Shown here piece after piece: positions 8,971-48,351 of a stretch of DNA of 64,000 nt. Both the position numbers and the translations under genes were made by a program. Source of the stretch: a virus (lineage: Duplodnaviria; Heunggongvirae; Uroviricota; Caudoviricetes). Where the stretch lies: positions 37,572 to 101,571 of the IMG/VR virus record IMGVR_UViG_3300028805_000083. The stretch is one strand, 5' to 3'. Numbering within the stretch: the first letter of the stretch is position 1; every line of letters starts with the position of its first letter. The notes beneath the pieces are model-generated. The model was not told where the DNA came from and searched no databases. It saw only the letters and a list, made by a program, of their open reading frames with translations.

Positions 8971-9486
8971 TTAGCTTTCTGTATTTTCAGCAATTATTCT
9001 TTCTCTAACCTCGTCAAGAACCTTACCTAGCAAGTTCTGACCTCTCCAATTCTTTTCATCATCAATTAATTGGTTATTTTGATGTAACCCTACACCATAT
9101 ATACAATCCACTGGAGACGCTTCAACAAAACTCTTTCCCATGTATCTCTCACCTAGCAAAGCCTCTTGGAGTTTAGGACACTTGGTATATTTAAGATAGT
9201 TTGCATCAAGCATGACTTGATAACGTTTCTCATTCCAAACTTTATCATCATAGTTCTTAACCTCCCTACCCAATGCCTTTGCAACTTTGGGGTCTTTACC
9301 ATCTTTGATTATTCTCTCAGCTATTTCATCGTCACCAAATGTCTTGGCTTTAACGAACATGAAATACTGTTCCGCATTGTGGAACTCGTGCTCTTTACCC
9401 TCATACTCAGCAGTAAAAATTGAAGGATGCCAATTTGAAGGCCATCCACTCCAGAAAAATACGTGTTTGTCTGTAACTCTAATCAT
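8971..9486 (-). CDS. NADAR domain protein (YbiA/DUF1768 family)
   Basis: FFWSGWPSNW, AEQYFMFVKAKTFGD, AKALGREV, EASPVDCIYGVG match the conserved blocks of the NADAR family. Confidence 0.7.
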   Translation of the reverse strand: MIRVTDKHVFFWSGWPSNWHPSIFTAEYEGKEHEFHNAEQYFMFVKAKTFGDDEIAERIIKDGKDPKVAKALGREVKNYDDKVWNEKRYQVMLDANYLKYTKCPKLQEALLGERYMGKSFVEASPVDCIYGVGLHQNNQLIDDEKNWRGQNLLGKVLDEVRERIIAENTES

Positions 9487-9839
9487 AGTTTTTCGATATT
9501 TTTTGTTTTTTTATTATATTTGTAACCGTTTTCTTTTAGCCTATTAATTAATTCTGTCATTTCAGAAAAAGTTGGTTTTCTTATCGTACTTGTTTTATGT
9601 TTTTCTATTAAATCTATTAGGTAACCAATGGACAAATTAATTCCAACTTCAAGAGTATTTGAAAGGTCTATCGAAACCATAACTGGTATCGAATAGCAAA
9701 TATATCCATTACCGCTTGATATAGATGGGTTAGAACCACTAGCAATAAAAATTATATAATCCCTTTCAAATAGATACGGCTCAAGATTGTTACATTTTAT
9801 AACTAAAATATCACCACGTTTTATATCAAATATTTCCAT
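9483..9839 (-). CDS. hypothetical protein
   Basis: ORF of 118 aa. Confidence 0.4.
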   Translation of the reverse strand: MEIFDIKRGDILVIKCNNLEPYLFERDYIIFIASGSNPSISSGNGYICYSIPVMVSIDLSNTLEVGINLSIGYLIDLIEKHKTSTIRKPTFSEMTELINRLKENGYKYNKKTKNIEKL

Positions 9840-10183
9840 TTCTTTATTTTTTTAACTTTTCTAGCCCTTCTGTCGTAGTAGCAACCACTGTTTTTAAGTT
9901 TGCCTACTACAAACATTGTTTCTAGTGGAGAGGCTTTAATCAAATCAAGAACATCAAAATCAACTTCTAATTTAATATTTATTTCAATACCATTATGCGT
10001 AAAATTATATATAAAATGATATTCCACCTCCACAGCATAAGAATCGCTATCAATTGATTTAAAACAGCCAATAGCCAAAGTTTTGCCTTTATCAGCTACT
10101 TTGAAAAAGTCACCGTCTTTAAACTCTTTTTTTGCTTTAATGAACTTTTCTTTAGCTCTTCTGCTTATATCTTCTACAGTCAT
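9821..10183 (-). CDS. hypothetical protein
   Basis: ORF of 120 aa. Confidence 0.4.
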   Translation of the reverse strand: MTVEDISRRAKEKFIKAKKEFKDGDFFKVADKGKTLAIGCFKSIDSDSYAVEVEYHFIYNFTHNGIEINIKLEVDFDVLDLIKASPLETMFVVGKLKNSGCYYDRRARKVKKIKKWKYLI

Positions 10184-10204
10184 ATTGTATTATGTTTAGT
10201 TTGT

Positions 10205-10248
10205 GCAAATATATAGAAAAACGTGGAAGATTCCAAATCTCCCACGTT
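10205..10248 (-). promoter_or_regulatory. Composite terminator-promoter cassette
   Basis: Minus strand reads AACGTGGGAGATTTGGAATCTTCCACGTT, then TTTCTATATATTTGCAC. Confidence 0.5.
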
Positions 10249-10256
10249 AATCTATG

Positions 10257-10487
10257 TTAAAGAAAATATTTCTTGAAAGAATCAAAAACTTCTACCCACG
10301 AAATTATGAATAAGAGAAATGCTCTCCAACAATAAAGTAGAAAATGATATATGTTCACAATCGGAACAAATACTACTTTAACATTTTCCTTTGTGAAAGG
10401 ATTATAACCTTCAGATAGCATAAGTAGAATCAATGCTATCATTGGAACAATGTAAAACCAAAAAATCCAAATCATTAATGTATTCAT
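10257..10487 (-). CDS. small membrane protein with two transmembrane segments
   Basis: 76 aa, strongly hydrophobic. Confidence 0.4.
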   Translation of the reverse strand: MNTLMIWIFWFYIVPMIALILLMLSEGYNPFTKENVKVVFVPIVNIYHFLLYCWRAFLLFIISWVEVFDSFKKYFL

Positions 10488-10829
10488 AGATTTTAATTTA
10501 TTGATGACATATTAATCTCCGTCTTCTTCAAATAAGAATGCATTTCTTAATGGCACAACTTCTAAACCGCAGTAAGGGTCTTCACTTGCAAGACCTATGT
10601 CATATTTTTGGCATAATTTTCTATATTCTTCAATGAATGAATCATATCCACTATCAATTTGTTTAATCTCTTCATGTGTTAATGTATCCATATACTTTTT
10701 ATTGTTTAATATTACATTGCAAAGATATAAAAAAAAGATGAGATAAACAAATATCTATTGATAATTATTGTTAATTTGGTATTTTTTATATTAAGGAGAT
10801 ATTTATATTTAAATAAACGATTTTAAATT

Positions 10830-12176
10830 ATGGATTGGAAAGAGAATTTTATTAAGAAAGCGAATGAACGTCATAACAACAAATATGATTATTCAAAAGT
10901 AGAATATTTTAATGCAACAACTAAAGTATGCATCATATGTCCTATTCATGGAGAATTCTGGATGACACCGCAAAACCATTTAAAAAAACAAGGTTGCCCA
11001 CAATGTTCTTATGACGTTAATAGAAAAACAACTAGACAGTTTGTCATAGAATCACAAAAAGTTCATGGTGGCAAATATGATTATTCCAAAGTTAAGTATA
11101 AAAATGCAAATACAAAAGTTTGTATAATATGTCCAAAGCACGGTGAATTTTGGCAAAAACCTTCAGAGCATATCAATGGTCACGGATGTCCTAAATGTTC
11201 TCATAGAAGTTATATTTATACTAAGGATGAGTTTGTTAAAGAAGCACAGAAAGTTCATGGAAATAAATATGATTATTCTAAAGTAGACTATAAAGGCAAT
11301 AAAGTTAAAGCTTGTATAATATGTCCAGAACACGGAGAATTTTGGATGAAACCAAATAGTCATTTGCAAGGGCAATCATGCCCTAAATGTGTTCATAGAA
11401 GTTATGCATATACAAAAGAAGAATGGATTAAGGAGGCACAAAAGGTTCATGGTAACAAGTATGACTATTCTAAAGTAGAATATGTCAATAATGATACAAA
11501 AATTTGTATAATATGTCCAAAGCACGGTGAATTTTGGCAAAGACCAGCTAATCATTTAAACGGTAGTGGGTGTTGCAAATGCGGAAAAAATGACATGAAA
11601 GAAAAAACCAAAAAAAATAAAGAAGAATTTATTAAACAATCAAAATCATTTTTTGGTGATTGGTTTGATTATTCCAAAGTAAACTATGTTAACAATAAAA
11701 CAAAAGTCTGTTTAATATGTAAAAAACATGGTGAGTTTTATACAAGGCCAGATGGACATTTAACTTCTCATAGAGGATGCCCACAATGTGCCTCAGAAAA
11801 AAATATTCATGAGACTATACTTTTCGAGCATCTTAAAGCAAGATACAAAAGTGCAAATTTCTTTCACTCTAAAAGAGGTATAAAGAATCTAGGACTATTT
11901 GAAATAGATATATATGATGAGAAAAATAAAATAGCCATAGAATACCAAGGTGATGAACATTTTGAAGCAATAGATTTTTTTAATGGAGAAGATGGTTTAA
12001 ATGAAACTTTGGAAAGAGATAAAAGAAAAATTGAATTATGCGAAAATAATGGCATAAAACTATTTCACTTTACTTATAACAAGAATTATAAAAAAGATAA
12101 AATATCATATAAAGTATACACTGATGAAAATGAATTGTATAAAGAATTGGATATTATATATAAAGAAAAACTGTAA
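10830..12176 (+). mobile_element. Homing-endonuclease-like protein with repeated Zn-ribbon modules and a C-terminal PD-(D/E)XK/Vsr-like nuclease domain. It is the only long plus-strand gene.
   Basis: About six repeats of HG.KYDYSKV.Y....K.CIICP.HGEFW..P..HL.G.GCP.C, then a C-terminal FEIDIYDEKNKIAIEYQGDEHF block. Paralogs lie at 33459-34784, 14955-15392 and 52921-53901. It is on the opposite strand to its neighbours. Confidence 0.55.
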
Positions 12177-12180
12177 GCAA

Positions 12181-13422
12181 TCAATGCTTACAGTTTTTTA
12201 TTAAATTAAGTATATATTCACACTTTTCTTTGTTTCCTAACATTTTCCCTTTATCATTTGATAGTTTAACACAATCTTGCCACTCACGGCTTTCAGTAAT
12301 TCTAAATCCAGTGAGTTTTATTACAATATTGCTATATGGGAACTTCTCATTTGTTTCATAATTAGTTACGTCAGCGCATAAATGAGTTCCTATTCCCACT
12401 GAATCTTTCATACGCCCATTGAGCCAATTATGAAGTTCTATAGCCTTGTCAATTGTAAGAGCATTTGAATACACGATTGCCTTTGTCGATGGGTCAATAC
12501 CAAGAGAACGATACTTTTCAATAATCTTCTCAGTTTGTTCTTTCTCATCACCACTATCAACACGTAGGCCATCAAATGTTTTCGCAAGACGCTTAGACAA
12601 ATTAGGGAAGAACATAACATCTGAGAAATTATCATAAAGGAAAATTCCGACATCACCGTTAAAACAGCGACTCCACTTATCCATTACTTGATAGTTACAT
12701 TCAAACACGCCACTAACGCACTCTTCGGCAGATACAATCTGATGCGACATCGTGCCTATAACTCCAAGGTTAAATTCCTTTGCGAACCATACGTTAGATG
12801 TACCAACAAATTTACCCGTATAAATTTGAGGGCAATCCTTTTGACGATATTTCACAGCATCACAAAATGCTTTAAGTACATCGTGGTGGTTCTGGAAATC
12901 AAAGCGCCTGCGAGTTCCCATGTCAGAAATAGAAAGTCCACCTTTTAAAGCTTTTAATGCCTTGTCAAATGCCTTATTATATTCCACTTCACGGTCTACT
13001 TTTTCAATATCTCCATTAACAATATGCATCAACTCAGAAATGGTGGAGAGAATAGGCATTTCCCACATGATAGTTGAGTACCATTTACCCTCAATCATAA
13101 TTGAGAGATAACCCTCAAGGTCTTGGAAAATGTGTACCTCAGATGGGTTAAAACGATACCCACGAAGGAAATTGTAATACCAATCTGGAAGGAAATAAAT
13201 CTTGCTCTTCATGAAAGCAATCTCTTCCTCAGTGATAACGACATCTTTCATACCGTCAATCTGCTCTTGTAGAAGCTTACCAAACCCAGCTGGATACTTG
13301 GTGTGATTGCGGTCAAAGAAAGAATAACGTACCTCTGCACGAGGATAAGTGTGAAGAATGTAATACTGAACCGTATACGAATATAAATCGTTATCGGTAA
13401 AATGCGTAACAATTTGTTTCAT
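12181..13422 (-). CDS. pncB: nicotinate phosphoribosyltransferase
   Basis: SDMGTRRRF, FVGTSNVWFA and GLRVDSGD are signature NAPRTase motifs. 413 aa. Confidence 0.8.
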   Translation of the reverse strand: MKQIVTHFTDNDLYSYTVQYYILHTYPRAEVRYSFFDRNHTKYPAGFGKLLQEQIDGMKDVVITEEEIAFMKSKIYFLPDWYYNFLRGYRFNPSEVHIFQDLEGYLSIMIEGKWYSTIMWEMPILSTISELMHIVNGDIEKVDREVEYNKAFDKALKALKGGLSISDMGTRRRFDFQNHHDVLKAFCDAVKYRQKDCPQIYTGKFVGTSNVWFAKEFNLGVIGTMSHQIVSAEECVSGVFECNYQVMDKWSRCFNGDVGIFLYDNFSDVMFFPNLSKRLAKTFDGLRVDSGDEKEQTEKIIEKYRSLGIDPSTKAIVYSNALTIDKAIELHNWLNGRMKDSVGIGTHLCADVTNYETNEKFPYSNIVIKLTGFRITESREWQDCVKLSNDKGKMLGNKEKCEYILNLIKNCKH

Positions 13423-13426
13423 GCTT

Positions 13427-13864
13427 TTATGATTTTATTTTTTCTAGTTTTATTACTGTTTTCTCTCCAATGCGTAGTGGCAATTGCTTCACAAGTTCCA
13501 ACCCTTCTAAACCTATAACTTGACCACGACCAACTCTATCTTGAATATAGGCTAAAATGTAATGTTTATTCTGACCGTGTTCAGCAACACCAATTATTTT
13601 AAATTCTCCAGCGTTTTCTCTTGCATCCTTTTCGTCTTGCCAATGTAAGAAATTAGAATAGTATGGAGCTTGACACTTTCTAGTGAAATGGACAAATGCA
13701 TCCTTATAATATGAATAGGATTCACCCCAATCCTTAACCTTTACAATATCTCCCACACGAAATGGAAATAAAATTGAATACCCTTCACTATTGATATACT
13801 CAAATAGTTTAATATTCATATTCTTGTTGGGGATATGTCCTTGCAGTGTCTTGCTCATAATCAT
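13427..13864 (-). CDS. hypothetical protein
   Basis: ORF of 145 aa. Confidence 0.4.
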   Translation of the reverse strand: MIMSKTLQGHIPNKNMNIKLFEYINSEGYSILFPFRVGDIVKVKDWGESYSYYKDAFVHFTRKCQAPYYSNFLHWQDEKDARENAGEFKIIGVAEHGQNKHYILAYIQDRVGRGQVIGLEGLELVKQLPLRIGEKTVIKLEKIKS

Positions 13865-14063
13865 TAATATCTTCTACGGCATCAACTGTTTCAGTTGTAC
13901 TACTACTATTATAATAGTAAGTTCTATTGTTATGATAAGGATTATATCTATCATGGGAGTTATTAGAAAGTTCTCCCATGAAATAGAATGTTTCCGCACA
14001 AGAAACCATTAAGCAAATAACTAAGGCTACTCTAATTAACCCTCTAAATAAATCTCTTATCAT
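13809..14063 (-). CDS. hypothetical small secreted or membrane protein
   Basis: 84 aa with a hydrophobic N-terminus. Confidence 0.35.
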   Translation of the reverse strand: MIRDLFRGLIRVALVICLMVSCAETFYFMGELSNNSHDRYNPYHNNRTYYYNSSSTTETVDAVEDINDYEQDTARTYPQQEYEY

Positions 14064-14989
14064 TACCCAATTTTGATGTCTTCATAATTCTCATGATACC
14101 ATTTGTCGAATTCCTCAAACTCAGCGTCTGAGAACTCCTTACGTACTGCATCATACTCGATGTAATCGCAATACTTCACCTTAACGATGATACGATTACC
14201 ACTACCATCGCAAAGAGGAATGGTTGGACGTGCAACAATACCCTCTTCAAGCATGGTTGGGTCAGCAGCCCTATCAAACTGTGTGGTAAAACCAGCACGT
14301 ACCTTATCTTCAATCTCTTTAAGTGTCATAACACCCAAGAAAGGAACAGTGTTAAGATTCAAACCCTTACAAAGAGCGTCACGAACATCCTTTGGAGTCC
14401 ACCAACCTTGCTGCTTAATGTCGAATACAAGGAAATCATTACCATTCTGAATATAGCGAGAGCCACATTTCTGAATTCCACTTCCGAAATACTCGCCATA
14501 GATATAAATGGGAACTTCCTCTAGTTCCACACTGTAGAAACCTTTTGAGAGTGGTGTATCAATGCTATTGTAACCAATCATTTCATCTTCTCCAAGCTCT
14601 GGAGTATAGTACTGTACCTTGTTTGTATCCTTATTTTTCACAGGAGCAAATCTAGCACTCTCCTTGGGGAACATTGTACAAAGCTGTGGCTTAATTCTCT
14701 CACCAATTTTCTCAAGCATTTCAAACTGTCCATGCTGTGACTGTGCTTTCTCAGTTTTACCCTCAACACGAATCTCACCTGTTGAAGGGAAGAATGCAAT
14801 CTTGGAATTTGTACCATCTATTTTACTTGTAGCCTCCCAAGGACAATTGAACAAATGACCAGCCTCCTTAAATGAGAACTCACCAAGGATAATCTTGTTC
14901 TTGAATTTTGCCCATGCCTTATTAGGGCATTTGCTTGCGTCAAAGATATACCTTTTATACAATGTCTGTATTTTCTGGTAGGTTTCCAT
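14063..14989 (-). CDS. RNA ligase, Rnl2 family (T4 RnlB-like)
   Basis: EATSKIDGTNSKIAF is KxDG motif I (compare T4 Rnl2 EKIHGTNFS). GEYFGSGIQK matches motif IIIa (GEFAGPGIQK) and FLVFDI matches motif IV (FYVFDI). Confidence 0.8.
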   Translation of the reverse strand: METYQKIQTLYKRYIFDASKCPNKAWAKFKNKIILGEFSFKEAGHLFNCPWEATSKIDGTNSKIAFFPSTGEIRVEGKTEKAQSQHGQFEMLEKIGERIKPQLCTMFPKESARFAPVKNKDTNKVQYYTPELGEDEMIGYNSIDTPLSKGFYSVELEEVPIYIYGEYFGSGIQKCGSRYIQNGNDFLVFDIKQQGWWTPKDVRDALCKGLNLNTVPFLGVMTLKEIEDKVRAGFTTQFDRAADPTMLEEGIVARPTIPLCDGSGNRIIVKVKYCDYIEYDAVRKEFSDAEFEEFDKWYHENYEDIKIG

Positions 14990-15392
14990 ATATTTTTTCT
15001 TTTAATGTTATTAAATCAGTTACTAATTCACATTCGTACTCAATTTCATAATGAGTATAATATATTATTTTTATGTTATGTAGTTCACAATTATTTCGTT
15101 TATTCCTATCTAATTCTACTGTTTTTTTGTATCTTTCTTCTCCGCCAAAATAATCAGAAGCCTTAAAATGCTGTAAGCCTTGACATTCGATAGCAATTTT
15201 ATATTTTGGTAGATAAAAGTCTAATGATTGTTTACCTAGCCATTTACCCCTTTTTTGTGCCACATATTCTATATTTTCTTTTTCTAGAAATTCTCTCACT
15301 TCTTTTTCCAAAGATGTGCTACTAAAGTTTCTGTTGCCATTTTTTTTATTAATTAGTAGGACAATGTGGACTCGAACCACAGACCTCACCAT
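14955..15392 (-). CDS. Stand-alone PD-(D/E)XK/Vsr-like nuclease domain, homing-endonuclease-like paralog
   Basis: LDFYLPKYKIAIECQGLQHF is the same C-terminal domain found in 10830-12176 and 33459-34784. Confidence 0.5.
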   Translation of the reverse strand: MVRSVVRVHIVLLINKKNGNRNFSSTSLEKEVREFLEKENIEYVAQKRGKWLGKQSLDFYLPKYKIAIECQGLQHFKASDYFGGEERYKKTVELDRNKRNNCELHNIKIIYYTHYEIEYECELVTDLITLKEKIYGNLPENTDIV

Positions 15393-15440
15393 ACTAGTGT
15401 TTCCACGTTCTGCTGCGCTCTCCCAACTGAGCTATCGTCC
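15358..15440 (-). tRNA. tRNA-like gene with an unassigned anticodon and about 13 extra nt in the anticodon region
   Basis: Canonical acceptor GGACGAT/ATTGTCC, D arm AGCTCAGTTGGGAGAGC and T arm TGTGG-TTCGAGT-CCACA. No 5-bp/7-nt anticodon arm could be folded by eye. Confidence 0.5.
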
Positions 15441-15696
15441 TTAACGCAATCTTCATGCGGCTAGCGTTTCCTTCTTCCGCACTCATCTAAGTGATTGCTT
15501 GATAACCGACTGTTTTACAATCTCGGTCAAACTAACTCCATTGCAAGCATCAATCTGTTCCGAAGTCGAGACTGTTATATCTTAGCAATGTCGTGTGGCA
15601 GGACTGCCCTCACCACGTCTTTCAGTTACCGTTTTGAAGCTTCATGTTGCAAAGGTACGAAAAAAAATTCAAATACCAAAATATTTTATGTTAAAA

Positions 15697-16320
15697 TTAG
15701 TTAACATTACAAAGTTTATAAATTCCAATACATGAATAGATGAATATCATAATCAGAATTATACCCAAAACCAATCCACCCCAAAAGTAATAGATTAACC
15801 CAAATATCATAAATAAGCCAATTATAACGCTTGTTGTACCAAATACAAATTGATAATACAACAATGAATGTTTTATTGGATACTCTTTATCTTTGAAATA
15901 TTCTTTAGCGTAATACCCAAAGGCTTTAGGTAGATTCATTATAGACACCGATTTACTATGGTCATAGTTATTGTTGTGAATCATTCTACGTATAATCTGC
16001 ACCCTTTTTATAAAGTCACTCTCAAAAGGCCTTATGGCAATGTCACCTACATAAAATAACTCATGCGCTCTTAATGCTGATTTTTTTTCCTCTGTAGTTA
16101 AACCACATATCTTGAACAATGAACAAAACGAGCCAAATACCTTTTGATTTTTCAGTGCTTTATAAAAATCGAGAACAATGGGGTTATTGACCTCAACTCC
16201 TGAATTATGATAAACATTCAAAGTAGTCTCTCTAACTCCCAAAACCTCTTTTTCCGCTTTTACTTTCTTTAATGCGGTTTTCCTACGTTTTCTTAACTTA
16301 ACCTTTTTACTGTGTATCAT
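15697..16320 (-). CDS. hypothetical membrane protein
   Basis: 207 aa with a K-rich N-terminus and a C-terminal transmembrane helix. Confidence 0.4.
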   Translation of the reverse strand: MIHSKKVKLRKRRKTALKKVKAEKEVLGVRETTLNVYHNSGVEVNNPIVLDFYKALKNQKVFGSFCSLFKICGLTTEEKKSALRAHELFYVGDIAIRPFESDFIKRVQIIRRMIHNNNYDHSKSVSIMNLPKAFGYYAKEYFKDKEYPIKHSLLYYQFVFGTTSVIIGLFMIFGLIYYFWGGLVLGIILIMIFIYSCIGIYKLCNVN

Positions 16321-16543
16321 TCTTCTTGAATACGTCTTTGAAAGGCTTTACAATGCTTTTCCAACTGAATAGTCTATCAACTAATTTCTCACTGTCTAAG
16401 TCTATTACAAGACCCTCTAGTATTCCAAGTTTCTCTTTATATGTCGATGCTTCTTTTGAAACATCAACAAGGGTTGATTCCAACTGCTTGATTTTGTTTT
16501 TTAAGCCGTTGTACTCTGCCATCGGGACTTCTATCCTAGACAT
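16307..16543 (-). CDS. hypothetical coiled-coil protein
   Basis: ORF of 78 aa. Confidence 0.35.
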   Translation of the reverse strand: MSRIEVPMAEYNGLKNKIKQLESTLVDVSKEASTYKEKLGILEGLVIDLDSEKLVDRLFSWKSIVKPFKDVFKKNDTQ

Positions 16544-17112
16544 ACTCTTTCAGAATTTTCTATAAAATTAGTAAACTTGTCAGCAGTATCTTTAGAGATA
16601 GCTGGGCACAAATCCTTAATCACATGGAAGTTTACGTGAGGTAACCCCCTCAGTCCATCTTTTACAGAATCTTGGATGCAATAATCGTAGGCAATACCAG
16701 CGACATCTATGTCAGTCACTTTCAACTGCTCTTCACATATTGTAATAAGCTTGTCACAAGACTTACTATTCTTGAAGATAGAATACTCTTCGTGGTCTTC
16801 GTTCACGCCCTTTCTCAAAACAAGGTAATCTGCCTTAATCTTATTAAGTGCCTCAAGAATCGGCTCATAGATAGCTGCACCCTTTGAATGCTGAACACAG
16901 TGAACTGGCCACATACCACCATTATCCTTGAACGAACAGTGTGTGAACGGATGCCAATCAGTTGTAAGGATAATCTTATCATACGCTGGACCATTTTCTA
17001 TGATAAACTGAGCGAGTTTATCCATTGCTGCTGTTGCTCCATTAACAGCAAGCTTGCCGCCCTCCAAGAAATCATATTGTGGGTCCACTATCAACAAAAT
17101 TTTTGTATTCAT
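16531..17112 (-). CDS. pncA: nicotinamidase, isochorismatase family
   Basis: LLIVDPQYDFLEGGKLAV, TTDWHPFTHCSF and WPVHCVQHSKGA match PncA (ALLLVDLQNDF...DWHP..H.SF...HCV). Confidence 0.75.
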   Translation of the reverse strand: MNTKILLIVDPQYDFLEGGKLAVNGATAAMDKLAQFIIENGPAYDKIILTTDWHPFTHCSFKDNGGMWPVHCVQHSKGAAIYEPILEALNKIKADYLVLRKGVNEDHEEYSIFKNSKSCDKLITICEEQLKVTDIDVAGIAYDYCIQDSVKDGLRGLPHVNFHVIKDLCPAISKDTADKFTNFIENSERVCLG

Positions 17113-17138
17113 ATTTTTTTAATTTCTTTTAAAATTAT

Positions 17139-17507
17139 TTATTTAAAATACGCATGTTTACCTTCTGCACTTGAAATAAAAGCCATGCTATAAGATTTGG
17201 CTTCAGACTTATAATACCAAAGTTCGTTTTTTACACATATTTTTGCCCATTCATAACTTAAATCACACCACTTAATACCGTTTTCAGTGTAATAAGATGG
17301 CCAATGGCAAAAATAGGTAGATGATTGAATCAATTCAATTGGTTCTCGAATTACTCTAGATACTAAGTCAATAAAAGTTATCCTATCATCATTTAATGGA
17401 CTTGATAATTTTTTATATTCTTCCCAAAATTCTTTTTCCCTAGCAAATTTTTTGAAAAAATATATTGTTTTTTTGGCAATTTCTTGCTTCGTTGGTGCTT
17501 TATCCAT
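17139..17507 (-). CDS. hypothetical protein
   Basis: ORF of 122 aa. Confidence 0.4.
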   Translation of the reverse strand: MDKAPTKQEIAKKTIYFFKKFAREKEFWEEYKKLSSPLNDDRITFIDLVSRVIREPIELIQSSTYFCHWPSYYTENGIKWCDLSYEWAKICVKNELWYYKSEAKSYSMAFISSAEGKHAYFK

Positions 17508-17560
17508 TTTCTTCAGTTATTTCTTTTTCTACTTTTTTAGCTGTATTTTTTCTAACCCTC

Positions 17561-17791
17561 TTAGGTTTCTCTTCCTTGAGGGGGAACATCTTTCACATCT
17601 GAGGGAAGCTCTTGAAAGAACGTATCAGTTTTCATCTGTTTCTCGAATTCATTAAATTCTTTCAAGAACTGATGCTTCGATATATCATAGGTGACACAAC
17701 TATTATGGAATTTCTTCGCAAATAGCTCAGTGCAAGAACCTTCTGTTCTCTTTACGCCCTTAAATGGACAATTCTTACATAATGTACCCAT
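17561..17791 (-). CDS. hypothetical protein
   Basis: ORF of 76 aa. Confidence 0.35.
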   Translation of the reverse strand: MGTLCKNCPFKGVKRTEGSCTELFAKKFHNSCVTYDISKHQFLKEFNEFEKQMKTDTFFQELPSDVKDVPPQGRET

Positions 17792-17896
17792 AGTTTATTG
17801 TTTTTTATGCAAAGATACTAAAAATATTTTAAATATAAAAATATTATATAATATATTTATATATTTTAATATAAATTAATAATATTATATATTAGT

Positions 17897-17932
17897 TAAA
17901 GACCCTAATAAATTATATTGTTAGGGTCTTCA
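17897..17932 (-). terminator. Strong hairpin at the 3' end of the CCA-enzyme gene
   Basis: AAGACCCTAA...TTAGGGTCTT is a 10-bp stem flanked by A/T-rich sequence. Confidence 0.45.
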
Positions 17933-19319
17933 ATTTATTTTCAACAATTTCAAATGCTTCATCCTTGGTCATATTAGTATTCTCAAAGTAGGCATCTTTA
18001 ACTGCTTCTAGTAGTATACCAACAAGAGGTGAAGACTTGATACTAAACTCTTTCATAATGTCGTTTCCAGATATTGGAAGTTTGACATTTGCAGCTTTTT
18101 CAGCATCTTCCATTTCCTCAATCCTATTAAGAATATCAAGAACTTGTCTCTTTTTCTTACCATAGGTACAATGCAAGTTGTTGGCATTCATTAAGTCAAC
18201 TGTTGCACCAAGGTTTTCTCCAGTGGTATTAATAAATTTTCTAATCTTCTTATCTGGGGGCATTACACCATCAGCGTAAAGCGCAAATGCTCTATGATAC
18301 TTAATGGCTGTTTCTACCGTATTGATAACGTAGTTAGGGAACTTCATTTTCTTGAGGTCATCAGCAGCAACTTCAGCACTAAACTTATCAGGATTAACAT
18401 CCCTTCTACTATCAGTGATAACCTTACCAACATCATGGAACAATGCCGCTAGGCGATTATCAACATATGGCTGTACAGTATCTAACACATTCATGGTGTG
18501 GTCGAAAGTAGAAACCATTGGATTCTTTGACTCATAAGCATAAGTTGTGTCATATATGTCTGGCATTACCCTATGCAATATACCACAGTAGTACATCTTA
18601 CGAATACCGATACTAGGTTTCTCACAAAGCAGTATCTTTGATATTTCTTCACTGATACGCTCTTGAGATATAATGCTTATTCGATGCGCATTCTTAACCA
18701 TACCTAGCCATGTGTTTTTCTCAATTCCCCAACCGAATCTAGTTGAGAATCGAATAACACGCAATATACGCAATGGGTCATCATTGAATGTAACATCTGG
18801 GTCGGTTGGCGTTTTAATAACTTGATTAACAAGGTCATCCAATCCATTGTTGTAGTCATGAATCTTCTCCGTGCTAATGTTGTAATACAAAGAATTGATT
18901 GTAAGGTCACGCCTCTTAGCGTCCTCTTGAATCGTACCATACACGGTATCTGGATTTCTGCTCTCCTTATGATACTGCTCCTTACGAGTCTGAACACACT
19001 CAACCTCAATGTCTTTCAGCTCATCGTTTTTATAAAGCTGAAATTTAGCAGTTCCATAAGTTTCAAACAGAACAGGATTACTTCCTTGTACAAAACATTG
19101 ATGCTTCATTGTCATGTAGTTTGCAAATAGCATTCCTCCGTTTTTAATGTCTACACAAATATCGACATCTTTACAAGGTATTTTTAATAGAAGGTCTCTT
19201 ACACATCCACCAACTAGAAATACATGGTTTTCAAATGCAGTACCTTTGATTGATTCTTGTATTAGTTTAACTAATTTTTTAATCCTTTCGTCAGCGTTTT
19301 TAAACAATATTTCGTTCAT
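17913..19319 (-). CDS. cca: CCA-adding tRNA nucleotidyltransferase with an HD domain
   Basis: HVFLVGGCVRDLLLKIPCKDVDICVD is the pol-beta nucleotidyltransferase head (GGxVRD...DxD). LAALFHDVGK is an HD motif. 468 aa. Confidence 0.8.
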   Translation of the reverse strand: MNEILFKNADERIKKLVKLIQESIKGTAFENHVFLVGGCVRDLLLKIPCKDVDICVDIKNGGMLFANYMTMKHQCFVQGSNPVLFETYGTAKFQLYKNDELKDIEVECVQTRKEQYHKESRNPDTVYGTIQEDAKRRDLTINSLYYNISTEKIHDYNNGLDDLVNQVIKTPTDPDVTFNDDPLRILRVIRFSTRFGWGIEKNTWLGMVKNAHRISIISQERISEEISKILLCEKPSIGIRKMYYCGILHRVMPDIYDTTYAYESKNPMVSTFDHTMNVLDTVQPYVDNRLAALFHDVGKVITDSRRDVNPDKFSAEVAADDLKKMKFPNYVINTVETAIKYHRAFALYADGVMPPDKKIRKFINTTGENLGATVDLMNANNLHCTYGKKKRQVLDILNRIEEMEDAEKAANVKLPISGNDIMKEFSIKSSPLVGILLEAVKDAYFENTNMTKDEAFEIVENKLKTLTI

Positions 19320-19321
19320 TT

Positions 19322-35362: not shown

Positions 35363-35770
35363 TTCGTAAATAACTTAAAAAAACCGTCCACTAATATATC
35401 ATATATACTTTTCTCTAGTTTACTGCTTCCGATGTATGTAGAATGACGTTCCTCTTTTTTATCAGTCATATACAGTCTAGCACTCATAATATGGTTAATG
35501 CTTGCTTTATTCTCTTCAAACATAAAGTCATCATATACGTTTTGCCATATAATGCAAAGATACTAAAAAAAAATTGAATATCCAAGATAAAACCGTTAAA
35601 AAAACAAAAAGTTGATGCAGATGCACCAACTTTTATTCAACTTTTTTTAATAATGCCTATATGAATATTTATAATATTTCTCATTATAGCACTGTGCATA
35701 CTGGTTAAAATACCATTTAATTGCTTTCTTAGCTAAATTACCAATTGTCTTCATATTTATTTCCCTTTCT

Positions 35771-42990: not shown

Positions 42991-43608
42991 CTACTTCTTT
43001 AAAATCAAAAGGTTACGTTTGTAATCAATGGAAATATCGTCACCTAGTTTTTTTAAAACACTCATACCTAATAGTAAAGGAGCGTCTTGCTGTTCCATAA
43101 CAACGCAAGGTATATTATTAACCTTTATACCTCCCACTTCTACCTCATTTATAATGATTGTATAAGACTTTACAGTATCTCCATTGGCAATTCTACATTG
43201 ACCACTCTCTAGAGTTGAATCATTGAGTAATTTTTGCTTTTTCAAGAACATATACTCAACAACAGAAATAGAAATGTCGGTAGCACCAGTATCCAATGTC
43301 ATCATCATCGATATTCCGTTGATTTTAGTGGGAACAAGGTAGCAATTATCCTCATGCTGTAGTTTGACCGCTAATTTAAAGTCATTTGGAACTTGTTTCA
43401 AAACCTTTGTGGTTTCAGTCTTCGGTATTGTGTCAGATTTGGTAATCTGAATCACTGTGGCTGTGTCCTTTTCGATTCCTAACGCCTTGGCTTCTAATGT
43501 ATCATATGCTCTAGGAAATAGTTTAGAGAACACCCAAATAAATCCCATCACTATTACAACCCCTAAAAAGAGTTTGGTGATACAACTTGATAATGTTATC
43601 TTCTTCAT
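42991..43608 (-). CDS. Membrane-anchored retropepsin-like (clan AA) aspartyl protease
   Basis: N-terminal transmembrane segment. MMMTLDTGATDISIS contains the D-T-G-A catalytic motif. Confidence 0.65.
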   Translation of the reverse strand: MKKITLSSCITKLFLGVVIVMGFIWVFSKLFPRAYDTLEAKALGIEKDTATVIQITKSDTIPKTETTKVLKQVPNDFKLAVKLQHEDNCYLVPTKINGISMMMTLDTGATDISISVVEYMFLKKQKLLNDSTLESGQCRIANGDTVKSYTIIINEVEVGGIKVNNIPCVVMEQQDAPLLLGMSVLKKLGDDISIDYKRNLLILKK

Positions 43609-43611
43609 ATT

Positions 43612-44598
43612 TTATTTACTAAAAATTTCAAAAGCATCATCTACTAGTTTGTCAACCATATCTATTTGATAAGTTGCTAACGCACTCCTAAACATTTTAC
43701 CACTCATTGTACGTCTGCCTTTCCTCTTCTTTCCACCACTAGAAACTGTTTTAACAACCTCTTTCTTTTTTGGCGGCTTCAAGTGTTCAGCTTCAGTTGC
43801 ATATCCAATGTGTGTAAATCCTAGGAATGAGCCGTTCTTCTCAATCTTACAAATCTCAACATGATTAGCACCATACTTGAATTCACCAGTACGAACTTTA
43901 ATCTGCTTAACGTATCTCAATGTTTGGTCTTTAAGACTCATTCCAACTGCAAACATCGCATCAAAGAAATTAGTAAGCTTTTTGCTTCCACTAAGACTGT
44001 TCTGTGTGAGGGGTGAACCTAAGTTTCGTTTTGGGGTATGAGATAGAACTAGTATGCTAGCCCCATACTTCTTTTTAATTTCACATAGATTTTTCATTAG
44101 TTTACCAGCAGTAGTTGCTGTGTCTTTCATATTAACAAGCCAACTCAAGTTATCTACAATTAATATCTTGGAGTTATACTTTATAATATTAGCTTCAATA
44201 GCCTCTATGATGACTTCATCAAATGCTTTCTTAGAATACTCGCAATAATCCCTTACTTTATCACTATCAAGCTCGACCCTAATAAACTTATCGTTAAAGT
44301 TAAACGTTTTCTTGGTTTTTTCATCTGTGTACCTAAGTTCAAATTGCTTCTTACTTAACTCAAAGTCATAATAAAGAATGGTGTCATCACCCTTTAGTCT
44401 TTCAGCAATAGAATTACCAATTTGTACGGCAAGAATACTCTTACCAACATTAGCATCTGCAAAAAGGCAGCAAACTTCATTCTCAAACCAAAACTCTTTC
44501 CAGAGCTTATTTGGATTCTTCTGTGCCTTTGCTTCCTCAATTGCTTGATTAGCAGTCATTGCGCTGAAGATGTCTGTTAAAGTTGGTTTATTTGCCAT
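43612..44598 (-). CDS. RecA-like/AAA_25 P-loop ATPase, RepA-like replicative helicase or primase-associated
   Basis: Walker A ADANVGKS. ASILVLSHTPK resembles RepA/DnaB-like proteins. The start is probably MANKPTLTD near 44598, because the longer ORF would overlap a tRNA-like gene. Confidence 0.55.
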   Translation of the reverse strand: MANKPTLTDIFSAMTANQAIEEAKAQKNPNKLWKEFWFENEVCCLFADANVGKSILAVQIGNSIAERLKGDDTILYYDFELSKKQFELRYTDEKTKKTFNFNDKFIRVELDSDKVRDYCEYSKKAFDEVIIEAIEANIIKYNSKILIVDNLSWLVNMKDTATTAGKLMKNLCEIKKKYGASILVLSHTPKRNLGSPLTQNSLSGSKKLTNFFDAMFAVGMSLKDQTLRYVKQIKVRTGEFKYGANHVEICKIEKNGSFLGFTHIGYATEAEHLKPPKKKEVVKTVSSGGKKRKGRRTMSGKMFRSALATYQIDMVDKLVDDAFEIFSK

Positions 44599-44619
44599 TA
44601 TGTAAAAATTAATGATTAG

Positions 44620-44694
44620 TGTACGGTAGAGGAATCGAACCTCTCTTCTTCTCAGGAAAACTCCTCGACATCCTAACCGATAGACGAACCGCAC
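44620..44694 (-). tRNA. tRNA-like gene with a non-canonical anticodon arm
   Basis: Acceptor GTGCGGT/ACCGTAC, D arm GTCT..GGAT, T arm AGAGG-TTCGATT-CCTCT. The anticodon region folds only as AGGA-GTTT-TCCT. Confidence 0.45.
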
Positions 44695-44865
44695 ATGATG
44701 CTTTTTTAAAATTAACTGCTAGGGGCAGGCTACGTTCTAACGATTATCCCCTCTTAACTGAGTACGCCCATAGGTCTTATTGCGCAATTATCTCCTACTG
44801 CTTTCTCTGCCTTGTGGTAGACCTTTATCAAATTACGTCCGCAGCAGCTAATTATGTTGTTTGTG

Positions 44866-44939
44866 AACCCCCTAGAGGAATCGAACCTCTTTTTCTAGCG
44901 TCACGCTATTGTTGTCCTAGCCATTAGACGAAGAGGGTA
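44866..44939 (-). tRNA. tRNA-like gene with a non-canonical anticodon arm, paralog of 44620-44694
   Basis: Acceptor ACCCTCT/AGGGGGT, D arm GTCT-AATGGCTA-GGAC, T arm AGAGG-TTCGATT-CCTCT. The anticodon region is TAGCG-TGA-CGCTA with a 3-nt loop. Confidence 0.45.
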
Positions 44940-45135
44940 TAGACGAGAAATGATTTTGCTAGCGTTGCTCACTTCTCGCAAAAGCAACAGTTGTACTCAA
45001 CCAACGAGACGGTTTATTTACCCACCAGCTCTAAATCCGACAACCCAGCTAGCTGTTTTAAGACCAGCCAATCTACAAGTTTATGCGCTAATCCTCACGC
45101 AAAAAGGGAAACTTGTTCACCCTTAATTTTTCAAC

Positions 45136-45960
45136 TTATCGTCTAACGTTCCACATACTAGTTGGACTTCCTCCAACTAGAACATCGATATTAGCACCTT
45201 GCTTTGCAGCAATAGTTTCAATCCACTTAAGACTGATAAAATCTTGTGTGCTCAAGCCAAGTTCCTCACGATATGCCTTATCAGCCTTTGCCCTTTGGCG
45301 TTCAGCTTTTTCACGAGCCAACTGTACCTCTGCCTCACGTTCTTGAGTCTGCTTTGCTTGCACAGCCTTTGCTGTGTTGTTCATTTCAGCCAACTGCTCC
45401 TTATTAGGCATAGCCTTACCAATGGTAACTTGTTTTACAACAACTGGAAACTCTTTCTCCTTGGACAACTTTGCCACATAATCTTGCATCTGCTTAAGTA
45501 CCTTTGCATCAATTTCATTTAGAATTGCACGATTACTCATAAGGTCAAAAGGACTATGCTGAGAAATATGGTCACGTACCAAATTACAGTAATAGTTATA
45601 CAAGTTAGTATTGAACCAATCTACACCATAATTCTGCAACAGAATAGGAGACTTACCCTTCTCAATCTGTGTGATAATAATGGTATGGAAATCCAACGGT
45701 GTGTTGTCATCAGAGAACAAATCGTCCATATCCACTTGATGTTTGAACGGAACAATCTTAAATTTCTCAGAAGACGTGCTCCACCAAACCCATGTCAAAC
45801 CTGTCTGTACTGGAGTCATGTCAATGCCACCATGCCCAAAAAACCAAGGCTTGTCAATGAGAACTGACTCTTCATCAGCACCAGGACGCACACCATGACA
45901 AGAACTCATGCTCAACATTGCTACGAGAGCAATAGAAAACATTGCTAAAAATTTCTTCAT
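45136..45960 (-). CDS. SPFH/band-7 domain lipoprotein
   Basis: Signal MKKFLAMFSIALVAMLSMSSC. C-terminal coiled coil AKAVQAKQTQEREAEVQLAREKAERQRAKADKAYRE is typical of HflC/K and stomatin. Confidence 0.5.
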   Translation of the reverse strand: MKKFLAMFSIALVAMLSMSSCHGVRPGADEESVLIDKPWFFGHGGIDMTPVQTGLTWVWWSTSSEKFKIVPFKHQVDMDDLFSDDNTPLDFHTIIITQIEKGKSPILLQNYGVDWFNTNLYNYYCNLVRDHISQHSPFDLMSNRAILNEIDAKVLKQMQDYVAKLSKEKEFPVVVKQVTIGKAMPNKEQLAEMNNTAKAVQAKQTQEREAEVQLAREKAERQRAKADKAYREELGLSTQDFISLKWIETIAAKQGANIDVLVGGSPTSMWNVRR

Positions 45961-46058
45961 AATTCTTTAATTAAAAGTTAAACAAATATGTTAATTCAAA
46001 TTCGATGCAAAGATATGAAAAATAATTGAAATGCCCAAATTATTTTCGTTAATTCTTG

Positions 46059-46442: not shown

Positions 46443-46462
46443 AATTACCTATTTTATATTAG

Positions 46463-46539
46463 TTGCAGAGGATGGATTCGAACCAATCGACCTCCTAGGG
46501 ATGAGCCTAGGCGAGCTGACCAAACTGCTCTACTCTGCG
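46463..46539 (-). tRNA. tRNA-like gene with a CUCAU-containing anticodon loop of 6 or 8 nt and a bulged T stem
   Basis: Acceptor (C)GCAGAG/CTCTGCA, D stem GAGC/GCTC, palindromic anticodon stem CCTAGG around CTCATC. Confidence 0.4.
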
Positions 46540-46645
46540 GTGCTATCTGTTTATATCGTCTGTTATAGCAAAGACCTAAGTACTTAGAATGAAATCGAAC
46601 TTTCAAAAGGTAATGGCCTGTCACCTAATGACTCAGATTCCATCG

Positions 46646-46725
46646 TGGACCAGGTAGGGCTTGAACCTACGTGTAACCAACTACGGTTTCAACTGCTTAT
46701 GAGGCAGAGCCGATACAAGTCCAAA
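46646..46725 (-). tRNA. tRNA-like gene with a Met-like anticodon loop CUCAUAA
   Basis: T arm GTAGG-TTCAAGC-CCTAC and anticodon stem-loop CTGC-CTCATAA-GCAG. The 5' end is poorly defined. Confidence 0.4.
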
Positions 46726-47068
46726 TCGCCAAAGGAACTTTCAAATTAATTCTATCGCACATGCCGTGTTTTACGCCTAGACTCTAACACGTTTAAGCCA
46801 ATATCCTTCCGTTTCAGCGCATATACGAATCCTATGTTAGACTCTCTTTGGCTATATCTTTATTTAATAATTCCAATCATCATCAAACTCGTCATCAAAG
46901 ATGGAGTAATCGTCATAGTCTTCATCGTAATCCTCTTCATGAACCTCATCGTAGTCATCGTAAAGGGATTCATCTAAATAATCGTTATATTCGTCAATCA
47001 TAGTTTATAATGTTTTTTTTTGTTTCACAATGCAAAGATACAAAAAAAAATTGGAATAGCCAAATTTA

Positions 47069-47461
47069 TTAACTTTTTTTAAATATTGTACTAACCCCAA
47101 CTATTATCCAAATTATACCGTATAAAACATAAAAAATAAGGGCAATAATTATCATTCCAAAAAAGGTGATAGATAGTTTCAAAAAATTGTTTACAAAGTT
47201 TTGGATATTTGTAGTTTTCTTTTTTCCTTCATCTATTTTTTTCTGTTTCGCTATGAAGTCGGTTTTAGGTATCATAGGAACTAACTGCAACTTGTCATTT
47301 TCATCTATCTTGAGACCAATATCAACTCGTCCATCGTTAAAAATAAGATATTCTTTGCCATTTGCATCTTTTTCCTTTACACCTTGGAAATAATAGGTAT
47401 CAGCATATACAGATGATGAAAATATTAATGCCGCTAAAAAAAATAATATTCTACTAATCAT
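47069..47461 (-). CDS. hypothetical secreted or membrane protein
   Basis: N-terminal signal plus a C-terminal transmembrane segment. Confidence 0.4.
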   Translation of the reverse strand: MISRILFFLAALIFSSSVYADTYYFQGVKEKDANGKEYLIFNDGRVDIGLKIDENDKLQLVPMIPKTDFIAKQKKIDEGKKKTTNIQNFVNNFLKLSITFFGMIIIALIFYVLYGIIWIIVGVSTIFKKS

Positions 47462-47479
47462 ATCAACATTAAAAAATAT

Positions 47480-47851
47480 TCAGTAGGACATACGTGATGG
47501 GATACACCCCCTCACACCCCCTCTTGGGTCTTCACAATCACCGTTATATCTAGGTATAATGTGTATATGGCAATGCATAACGGTTTGTCCAGCAGCCTCG
47601 CCACAATTCATCCCTATATTATACCCATTAGGTTTGTATTTATCATCAAGTATTTCTTTAACGTGGTCAACTGCGCAAACAAGAGCACCCAATTCCACTT
47701 GGTTTAAATCAAAATAGGTTTTACAATGTCTTTTTGGAATTAATAGGGTATGCCCTTCCGAGACTGGATAACCATCTAAAATAGCCACCCATAAAGAATC
47801 TTGATATATTATTCTATCTTCTTTAACGCCACAAAATACACAATCTTCCAT
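47480..47851 (-). CDS. HIT-family nucleotide hydrolase
   Basis: HTLLIPKRH and the histidine triad HCHIHIIPR. Confidence 0.85.
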   Translation of the reverse strand: MEDCVFCGVKEDRIIYQDSLWVAILDGYPVSEGHTLLIPKRHCKTYFDLNQVELGALVCAVDHVKEILDDKYKPNGYNIGMNCGEAAGQTVMHCHIHIIPRYNGDCEDPRGGVRGCIPSRMSY

Positions 47852-48351
47852 TATTCTTCTACGGCTATACGTTTTATCTCACCAATTACAACATCCAAAG
47901 CCTCATTAATGGCTGCTTCTATGTTCTTGCCTCTCAACCCATCAACATTGATTTTGCTGTATTTGAAATCTACTTTCTTGTCAGTAAGGGTAGCCACACA
48001 AATCCAAACCGTATTATCTGAGTCTTCATCAGCCGCCATAGGTGGAACTACGTTACCCACAACAGCCACACAAACGTCCACATTAAGTTTATAAATGCCG
48101 TTGAGAGCCATTTGGCAAGCTGCTTGGGAACTAACAAGCCCATTGTTTTTAAACACGTTGTGAGAGACTTCTAGCATTTTCTCCATGTGGTCTTCATCGA
48201 CTGTAACAATTGTACCGCCATAAACGGTTGAAAGTCCACACATGCTTGAGATTGATGCGCCAAGCAAACCACTAGTGCAATGCTCAACAGTTCCGATGGT
48301 TAGACCAGCGTTCAGAAGCTCTAACCCTAATACTCTTAATTTATCCCTCAT
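47851..48351 (-). CDS. pncC: CinA C-terminal domain protein / NMN deamidase
   Basis: TVEHCTSGLLGASIS matches the CinA-C ESCTGG motif. 166 aa. Confidence 0.7.
   Translation of the reverse strand: MRDKLRVLGLELLNAGLTIGTVEHCTSGLLGASISSMCGLSTVYGGTIVTVDEDHMEKMLEVSHNVFKNNGLVSSQAACQMALNGIYKLNVDVCVAVVGNVVPPMAADEDSDNTVWICVATLTDKKVDFKYSKINVDGLRGKNIEAAINEALDVVIGEIKRIAVEE

Follow-up and report, generated by a model that had tools for sequence, protein, structure and literature searches.

A probable dispersed Preiss-Handler-type NAD+ salvage module in an accessory region of a jumbo phage, probably of Bacteroidota

Introduction

Few outcomes of bacterial defence against phages are commoner than depletion of nicotinamide adenine dinucleotide (NAD+), and three phage routes that rebuild the cofactor and thereby counter such defence have been experimentally proven (NARP1, NARP2 and NARP3). 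A deamidated route, running through the nicotinamidase PncA, the nicotinate phosphoribosyltransferase PncB, NadD and NadE, is so far a genomic prediction only, in gut jumbo phages, and no experimental test of it was found in the literature. In 2024, 174 gut 'NAD-jumbo phages' were described in which the salvage or Preiss-Handler pathway is complete (Microbiome; PMC11662467); they feature pncB-nadD-nadE clusters (e.g. Kuafu_71) together with pncA, and mostly have Bacteroidota hosts. NAD+-consuming enzymes are common among these phages, with an NAD-dependent ligase, for example, in 90 of the 174, and a role in countering NAD+ depletion has been proposed for them (PMC11662467). A survey of 2021 had likewise predicted that the NAD+ synthesis genes of jumbo phages answer host NADases, and that their NADAR, Macro and Nudix domains process ADP-ribose derivatives. 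The subject here is a set of genes for PncA, PncB, a Nudix hydrolase, a NADAR protein and a CinA-like protein in a stretch of 64,000 nucleotides (the window) from the caudoviral IMG/VR record IMGVR_UViG_3300028805_000083, which adds a lineage to the genomic evidence for the deamidated route.

The window resembles the NAD-jumbo phages in representing a large, gut-type phage with a predicted Bacteroidota host and phage-encoded pncB, nadD and pncA, but differs from them in that its genes stand in separate units over more than 20 kb instead of in a cluster, and in that no NadE was seen. An original prediction, made from the letters of the window, had presented a PncA/PncB/PncC route as a different solution, not yet described; both the Preiss-Handler gene sets and the counter-depletion idea are, however, already found in the 2024 work (PMC11662467). 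The terms 'nudix', 'NADAR' and 'PncC' occur zero times in the text of that paper. What is new here is the embedding of Nudix and NADAR genes in NAD+ synthesis modules and the pairing of the CinA-like gene with a HIT hydrolase gene, which are modest additions to a known type of gene set.

Among the proven routes, NARP2 (Nampt plus NMNAT/Nudix of Vibrio phage KVP40; Osterman et al. 2024) shares with the window a start from nicotinamide and phosphoribosyl pyrophosphate (PRPP) and an associated Nudix domain; it is, however, an amidated, two-step and experimentally demonstrated pathway via nicotinamide mononucleotide (NMN), whereas the route of the window would deamidate first and would need PncB, NadD and NadE. 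The only phosphoribosyltransferase of the window matches NAPRTase models, not Nampt. NARP1 (Adps plus Namat) and NARP3 (PnuC plus a NadR-like protein) are similar in being phage-encoded refills of defence-depleted NAD+, but their substrates and chemistry are unlike those of the window route. The Pfam scan of the window covered open reading frames (ORFs) of at least 95 amino acids, run as concatenates, with copying errors possible; PRPS-like Adps, Namat, Nampt plus NMNAT, PnuC and NadR were all absent from its matches. Set against the bacterial pyridine nucleotide cycle (PncA, PncB, PncC, NadD and NadE), the phage PncA, PncB and NadD are, as far as sequence tells, orthodox enzymes of deamidated salvage, whereas the PncC-like protein lacks the Ser/Lys dyad and the Tyr, and NadE was not seen.

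Results and discussion

Salvage enzymes encoded in and beside the window

Taken together, the genes described below probably form a dispersed Preiss-Handler-type NAD+ salvage module in an accessory region of a Bacteroidota jumbo phage. The five ORFs named in the original prediction were found exactly where it had placed them, all on the minus strand and spread across ~39 kb, in keeping with the dispersal that it had described, and each of the five matches the Pfam family claimed for it in searches with hidden Markov models:

8971-9486, minus strand: YbiA-type NADAR protein (171 amino acids), a putative ADP-ribosyl N-glycosidase (PF08719 and TIGR02464)
12181-13422, minus strand: PncB, nicotinate phosphoribosyltransferase (413 amino acids), predicted to convert nicotinate and PRPP to nicotinate mononucleotide (NaMN) (NAPRTase and NAPRTase_N)
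16531-17112, minus strand: PncA-type nicotinamidase (193 amino acids), predicted to convert nicotinamide to nicotinate (Isochorismatase Pfam match and PDB matches)
32930-33496, minus strand: Nudix hydrolase (188 amino acids; NUDIX, 55 bits)
47851-48351, minus strand: CinA-C-like protein (166 amino acids; PF02464, 84.8 bits against a cutoff of 23.5)

On sequence grounds, PncA and PncB are genuine enzymes that look catalytically competent, and the motifs quoted for them are present as given (DWHP at residue 52 and HCV at 71 in PncA; DMGTRRRF at 167, VGTSN at 206 and RVDSGD at 287 in PncB). PncA scores 30.8 bits with the Pfam Isochorismatase model (cutoff 27) and 87.3 bits with NF008623, the nicotinamidase/pyrazinamidase model and its only NCBIfam match, which is below the cutoff of 174; its sequence matches in the PDB are all nicotinamidases, the best at E = 5.5e-22. 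D10, K101 and C145, together with D52, H54 and H71, align with their counterparts in the Pyrococcus horikoshii (1ILW) and Mycobacterium tuberculosis (3PL1) enzymes, and from the roles of those residues we take the former three to be the catalytic triad and the latter three the metal ligands. PncB matches PF04095 (NAPRTase) at 131 bits and PF17767 (NAPRTase_N) at 106 bits, and passes the equivalog model TIGR01514 with 298.1 bits (cutoff 269.55). All of its PDB matches are NAPRTases, led by that of Porphyromonas gingivalis (2IM5, E = 5e-63), with H227 (in GTMSHQ) aligned to the second His of GTHPHE in 2IM5; in the Salmonella enzyme the conserved His219 is presumably the residue that is autophosphorylated.

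Two further genes of interest were identified just outside the window. The JGI contig Ga0310691_10000530 (JGI 3300031994; 69.8 kb) represents the same phage, overlapping the window from position 1 to ~37,900 and extending ~32 kb beyond its left edge, and the sequence of this phage to the left of the window includes:

L061:17309-17953, ~5.0-5.7 kb past window position 1, same phage contig: NadD (214 amino acids; TIGR00482)
L061:20063 onward, ~7.8 kb past window position 1 and ~2 kb beyond NadD: microbial-type PARG (PF10021)

NadD reaches 114.1 bits with TIGR00482 (cutoff 112.45) and matches Bacillus subtilis NadD (1KAM) at E = 1.3e-17; the motifs GSFDPIHIAH (GxFxPxHxxH; HxGH-type) and SSTLVR (SSTxxR; SxxxxR) are seen in its alignments. 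A GIY-YIG endonuclease gene lies between NadD and PARG, and a relative keeps the order NadD ... PARG-YqeY.

The search for NadD and NadE homologues elsewhere in the genome that had been advised thus recovered NadD, ~5 kb off the left edge of the window, and did not recover NadE. NadE, Prs, Nampt, PnuC and NadR were absent from the Pfam matches of the window ORFs of at least 95 amino acids, from the ~20 kb to the left of the window and from the surroundings of NadD (up to 10 kb) in a relative. A scan of IMG/VR with the NadE of a related phage locus (L010, described below) did not hit the lineage of the window, by a method that finds close relatives only; most of the genome, which probably measures 300-400 kb, lies outside the sequence covered by the NadE search. 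Of the pncB, nadD and nadE genes by which the NAD-jumbo phages were recognised (PMC11662467), pncB and nadD were found, and nadE was not in the sequence covered. An ORF of 200 amino acids overlapping the end of NadD was considered as a cryptic NadE and rejected, having neither a family match nor a PP-loop motif.

Compact NAD+ modules in related phages

The comparison that ties these genes together comprised 68 fetched loci (719 kb), for which the queries were the proteins of the window, NadD of the phage and NadE of E. coli. Compact arrangements were found in several loci, with the genes in each of the following on the same strand:

L010 (356 kb contig; PncB 73% identical to that of the window): PncA, NadE, PncB, Nudix, NadD
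L050 (87 kb contig): NadD, NADAR, PncB, NadE, Nudix, PncA
L031 (174 kb contig, from a metagenome shared with the window): PncA, Nudix, PncB, NadE
L032 and L033: PncA, PncB, NadE, NadD
L036: PncA, PncB, NadE, NADAR

PncA-PncB pairs are found in more than 12 loci (e.g. L018, L025, L030 and L039), and in all 22 PncA-anchored loci of other lineages PncB lies within 4 kb. The NadE proteins of the modules score 107-149 bits with TIGR00552 (cutoff 63.65). Within the window's own lineage (L003, L004, L006 and L011) one order is kept, with PncA followed after 3 kb by PncB and after a further 1.5-3 kb by NADAR. The window therefore holds in dispersed form a module that other loci carry in compact form.

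Homologues of the window Nudix protein (E = 5e-25 to 2e-44) stand inside the modules of L010, L031 and L050, and homologues of its NADAR protein (E = 6e-30 to 9e-50) inside those of L050 and L036. Because these homologues are embedded among PncA, PncB, NadD and NadE, the Nudix and NADAR proteins are grouped as partners of the pathway; their proposed association with NAD is thus justified by gene neighbourhood in other large phages.

The Nudix hydrolase

The Nudix box (GX5EX7REUXEEXGU) is complete from G81 to V103 (G81-YLSRN-E87-TAKECAV-R95-E96-C-F-E99-E100-T-G102-V103), with its key positions invariant in 17 homologues. A proline ~16 residues past the box is a marker of ADP-ribose pyrophosphatases (ADPRases), and SQPWPFPQS a marker of NADH diphosphatases (PMC5389931); P119, at +16 after the box, is present in 15 of the 17 homologues and provides a weak ADPRase marker. 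An AlphaFold2 model (mean predicted local distance difference test score 76) has as its nearest folds an Enterococcus faecalis Nudix protein, the NrtR:ADP-ribose complex 3GZ8 and the Nudix domains of NadM. On sequence and model, the protein is probably an ADP-ribose pyrophosphatase. A NudC-type NADH pyrophosphatase or NAD-decapping enzyme was also considered; the SQPWPFP motif was not found in the protein, although four invariant cysteines (C28, C59, C78 and C80) are left to be explained. These cysteines, together with a conserved NQPCYDKYGRFLGW motif at the N-terminus, possibly form a metal site.

The NADAR protein

The NADAR protein scores 145.3 bits with PF08719 and 136.5 bits with TIGR02464 (cutoff 73.7), and its sole sequence match in the PDB is 8BAU, the Phytophthora nicotianae NADAR with ADP-ribose (E = 1e-20). 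E122 (the Glu of the VE(A/H) motif), D127 and G131 are identical in E. coli YbiA. A distinction of the NADAR family into YbiA and other types has been described (PMC11125620), and all NADARs assayed to date in two studies perform guanine-DNA de-ADP-ribosylation in vitro (PMC11125620; PMC11825919). Phage NADARs termed AdfN strip ADP-ribose from guanine in DNA and counter DarT1/DarTG1 (PMC11825919). The window NADAR is like AdfN in standing alone, without the N-terminal extension of DarG1, and in keeping the active-site residues; it differs in being of YbiA type, with Glu where T4 gp30.3 has His, and in having homologues embedded in NAD-synthesis modules. Among the phage NADARs of that study just one was related to the YbiA group, and that distantly (PMC11825919).

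Promoters and transcription units

Enrichment of intergenic k-mers returned a conserved promoter, TTTGG-N~19-TAtaTCTTTGca. A relaxed form of the pattern has ~30 distinct sites on the minus strand against four matches on the plus strand, and the element is therefore considered real. As TTTGG-N19-TATATCTTTGCA it heads nearly every unit, with examples on the minus strand at 54375, 54045, 46015, 42830, 30835, 8907, 4140 and 954. Bacteroidota promoters follow a -33 TTTG / -7 TAnnTTTG consensus, which the window element fits. A sigma-70 consensus scan returned 56 sites against 44 +/- 8 expected, which is chance level, the scan being unsuited to Bacteroidota promoters.

The five genes had been thought to be separately promoted, each by the same early-type promoter. 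None has a promoter of its own: the gaps to the upstream ORF are -4, +4, +26, -38 and +1 nucleotides, with the NADAR start overlapping its upstream ORF by 4 nucleotides and the Nudix start overlapping an upstream ORF of 441 amino acids by 38. The nearest promoters lie 750 (NADAR), 2258 (PncB), 705 (PncA), 2089 (Nudix) and 911 (CinA-like) nucleotides upstream of the start, in each case ahead of other genes, and each of the five genes stands inside or at the end of a different multigene unit. As the promoter heads essentially every unit of the window, it is no distinguishing mark of the NAD genes; the label 'early' is plausible only loosely, promoters that resemble host ones being early as a rule. 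The promoters of the five units, and the terminator after PncB, are as follows:

10206-10237, minus strand: promoter of the NADAR unit, TTTGGAATCTTCCACGTTTTTCTATATATTTG, overlapping a terminator-like hairpin (10248-10220)
12166-12198: hairpin terminator between PncB and a convergent plus-strand ORF of 448 amino acids, with a 14-bp stem and a T-rich tail, overlapping the PncB stop
15650-15680, minus strand: promoter of the PncB unit, TTTGGTATTTGAATTTTTTTTCGTACCTTTG, in the 304-nucleotide gap before ORF 14955-15392
17808-17845, minus strand: promoter of the PncA unit, with the -7 element TATCTTTGCA at 17817, 26 nucleotides before ORF 17561-17791
35555-35585, minus strand: promoter of the unit ending with the Nudix gene, TTGGATATTCAATTTTTTTTTAGTATCTTTG
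49232-49263, minus strand: promoter of the CinA-like/HIT unit, TTTGGTTAGTTCAACTTTTTTTCGTACCTTTG

NADAR comes third and last in the unit of the 10237 promoter, PncA third in that of the ~17817 promoter, and PncB last in that of the 15680 promoter, ending in the hairpin terminator. In the compact locus L010, promoter-like motifs stand directly ahead of PncB and NadD.

The neighbours of two of these genes are a pair of treble-clef zinc-finger paralogues (DUF723/DUF4379), 38% identical to each other (E = 8e-74):

10830-12176, plus strand: treble-clef paralogue, convergent with PncB and inside a low-GC patch
33459-34784, minus strand: treble-clef paralogue, overlapping the start of the Nudix gene

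Both have five repeats and an endonuclease-like C-terminal domain, and the minus-strand ORF 14955-15392 consists of that C-terminal domain alone. These proteins may be homing-type selfish elements that aid the dispersal of the NAD module.

The CinA-like protein and its HIT partner

Of the PncA/PncB/PncC set originally proposed, the first two members stand as real, catalytically competent-looking enzymes and the third is not supported. The quoted EHCTSG motif is present at residue 23, and PF02464 recognises the protein well above its cutoff; the PncC-type NCBIfam models are its top matches, and both of their cutoffs are missed (TIGR00199, 65.7 bits against 68.9; NF002975, 57.3 bits against 212). 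Mutants S31A, Y58A, K63A and R145A of Agrobacterium tumefaciens CinA (AtCinA) are inactive (PMC5384747). In the phage protein AtCinA S31, Y58, K63 and T105 are replaced by H24, V51, M56 and V98, removing the Ser/Lys dyad and the Tyr (S29, K61 and Y56 in E. coli PncC), while the phosphate-binding Arg (R140, equivalent to AtCinA R145), S41 and the E-x-C-T-x-G block are kept.

Of 187 sequences aligned to the phage protein (the best 150 of 1.8 billion cluster representatives together with 37 close homologues), 137 retain Ser, Tyr and Lys. In the ~12 clusters (at the 50% level) nearest to the phage protein, H, Q, A, C or E replaces the Ser and a hydrophobic residue the Lys, and the Tyr is mostly missing; these clusters retain the E-x-C-T-G block, the V-G and the phosphate-binding Arg. 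The protein thus belongs, as judged from these residues, to a derived subfamily without the known deamidase chemistry and is not a canonical PncC. The idea that His24 serves as nucleophile instead was rejected, that position varying between H, Q, A, C and E across the subfamily. The label 'PncC family amidohydrolase' in this phage clade consequently covers proteins without the catalytic residues, and constitutes an annotation trap.

The CinA-like gene was never found within the compact NAD modules of the 68 fetched loci. Its usual neighbour is instead the following gene:

47480-47851, minus strand: HIT-family hydrolase (123 amino acids; PF01230, 86 bits; HinT-like, 70 bits)

The HxHxH motif of the HIT protein is intact at residues 93-97, and its start shares one base with the stop of the CinA-like gene, making the two translationally coupled. 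The HIT gene directly follows the CinA-like gene in 6 of the 7 members examined (down to 45% identity), with an overlap or a gap of at most 2 nucleotides, and the pair is kept in L014, L015, L076, L077 and L078; the pairing may partly reflect common descent, all contexts being syntenic phage regions. A speculative and doubtful suggestion is that the two genes constitute a new module of Bacteroidota jumbo phages acting on an NMN-, NAD- or ADP-ribose-like nucleotide, in which the CinA-like protein, having kept the Arg and the E-x-C-T-G block and lost deamidase chemistry, would bind the ligand, and the HIT protein would cleave or transfer a nucleotidyl group. Such a module might destroy or sequester an NAD-derived immune signal, or might make or unmake a dinucleotide by a non-canonical path.

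Downstream of the pair, three genes stand in a row, and the same AAA_25 and Band_7 genes reappear near the CinA-like gene in distant relatives:

42991-45960, minus strand: retropepsin-like aspartyl protease (membrane segment at its N-terminus), AAA_25 ATPase and SPFH/Band_7 protein

Source phage and host

The window has a G+C content of ~34% and carries almost all of its genes on one strand. Positions 8000-20000 gave no match to GenBank phages by megablast, and a tblastn search with PncB matched 13 of 50,697 phage records, all less than 40% identical and for the most part huge phages that lack annotation. A close relative in IMG/VR (3300028833_002293) holds all five genes in collinear order. 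Contigs that carry NadD homologues measure 300-409 kb and those with Nudix homologues up to 425 kb, and the lineage is therefore regarded as one of jumbo phages; IMG/VR 3300028048_000038, at 409 kb, is one of the relatives. The host is most likely a member of the Bacteroidota, an affinity indicated by the -33 TTTG / -7 TAnnTTTG promoters, the Porphyromonas-like PncB and a BspA-type leucine-rich-repeat protein.

Proposed role and alternative explanations

From enzyme identities that are established by comparison of sequences, we infer the activities, the pathway flux and a counter-defence role. The window would be an accessory region transcribed by the host RNA polymerase, in which PncA would deamidate nicotinamide to nicotinate, PncB would combine nicotinate with PRPP to give NaMN, and NadD, from outside the window, would convert NaMN to nicotinate adenine dinucleotide, leaving the final step to NAD+ to NadE, presumably that of the host or one encoded in another part of the genome. 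The Nudix hydrolase would split free ADP-ribose into AMP and ribose-5-phosphate, and the NADAR protein, with PARG outside the window, would strip ADP-ribose from macromolecules and nucleobases or from small N-glycosides. The net effect would be that NAD+ stays available, to withstand host NADase defences as well as to supply the NAD+ consumers of the phage itself, with the CinA-like gene placed outside the salvage route as part of its separate conserved pair with the HIT hydrolase.

A possible, though rather unlikely, alternative is that PncA, PncB and NadD are ordinary auxiliary metabolic genes for phage NAD+ supply with no specific link to NADase defence, the NAD+ serving the NAD+-dependent enzymes of the phage and the long infection cycle of a jumbo phage. 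The many NAD+-consuming enzymes of the NAD-jumbo phages (PMC11662467) would suit such a use, as would the general look of self-sufficiency of the window, with its dihydrofolate reductase, CCA-adding enzyme, two RNA ligases, ~15 tRNA genes and tmRNA; yet the pathway begins at nicotinamide, which NADase defence produces, Nudix and NADAR join it in relatives and a PARG-like gene lies nearby, which fits the recycling of NAD+ breakdown products, and three other phage NAD+ routes are experimentally counter-defensive. That the five genes have no functional connection and share an NAD theme by coincidence, with only PncA and PncB concerned with NAD, appears improbable. The NADAR protein would then be an AdfN-like anti-DarT1 factor, as the reversal of DNA guanine ADP-ribosylation and the countering of DarTG1 by phage NADARs might suggest, the Nudix protein would be an RNA-decapping or nucleotide-sanitising enzyme, its family assignment being generic, and the CinA-like/HIT pair would do something else, all in keeping with a spread over five transcription units; in several large phage contigs that are unrelated, however, Nudix and NADAR homologues are found directly between PncA, PncB, NadE and NadD, an arrangement not easily accounted for unless the genes are functionally linked. 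Very improbable, finally, is a PncA, PncB and PncC route that deamidates NMN to NaMN as well, with every gene under its own copy of a shared early promoter: the PF02464 match at 84.8 bits, the rank of the PncC-type models, the JGI label 'PncC family amidohydrolase' on close homologues and the retained R140, S41 and E-x-C-T-x-G block speak for it, but H24, V51 and M56 occupy positions at which mutation to Ala inactivates AtCinA, the subfamily shows no conserved new nucleophile, the PncC model cutoffs are missed, the gene is absent from the compact NAD modules, and no gene has a promoter of its own.

Several observations weigh against the dispersed salvage module as proposed. PncA only barely clears its Pfam cutoff and falls under the NCBIfam equivalog cutoff; no NadE was found, so the route is incomplete as far as it is visible; the folds of RppH, NUDT15, MutT and Dcp2 score nearly as high against the Nudix model as ADP-ribose-binding ones; and the phage NADARs assayed so far act on ADP-ribosylated DNA, not in NAD metabolism (PMC11825919). 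Counter-defence and general metabolic support are, moreover, not separable by sequence. The salvage module nonetheless probably accounts for the genes, and the specific Nudix and YbiA-type NADAR proteins, which travel inside the modules, become candidates for testing a fourth route of NAD+ rebuilding in Bacteroidota phages.

Other features of the window

Further genes recognised by Pfam, including the leucine-rich-repeat protein cited above, and those for RNA ligases, a CCA-adding enzyme, tRNAs and a tmRNA are:

23299-25356, minus strand: ankyrin-repeat protein (Pfam)
30275-30799, minus strand: dihydrofolate reductase (Pfam)
31190-31951, minus strand: DUF1848 protein (Pfam)
36984-38744, minus strand: BspA-type leucine-rich-repeat protein (Pfam)
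4186-4872 and 14063-14989: two RNA ligases (Pfam)
17913-19319: CCA-adding enzyme with an HD domain (Pfam)
38888-62929, minus strand, plus 3169-3241: ~15 tRNA genes scattered between ORFs
49737-49821, minus strand: tRNA with anticodon CTA, an amber suppressor (Rfam tRNA, 56.4 bits)
55004-55373, minus strand: tmRNA (Rfam RF00023, 55.2 bits against a cutoff of 47), with the ARAGORN tag peptide GENVNSPAYEYAIAA

The tRNA genes, CCA-adding enzyme and RNA ligases look like a toolkit for tRNA supply and repair. Despite the tRNA with a CTA anticodon, TAG still serves as the stop in 11 of the 73 ORFs of the window; this tRNA may be a hint that stop codons are recoded in a late region elsewhere in the genome. 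Among the Rfam tRNA matches, that at 51140-51263 is unusually long (124 nucleotides).

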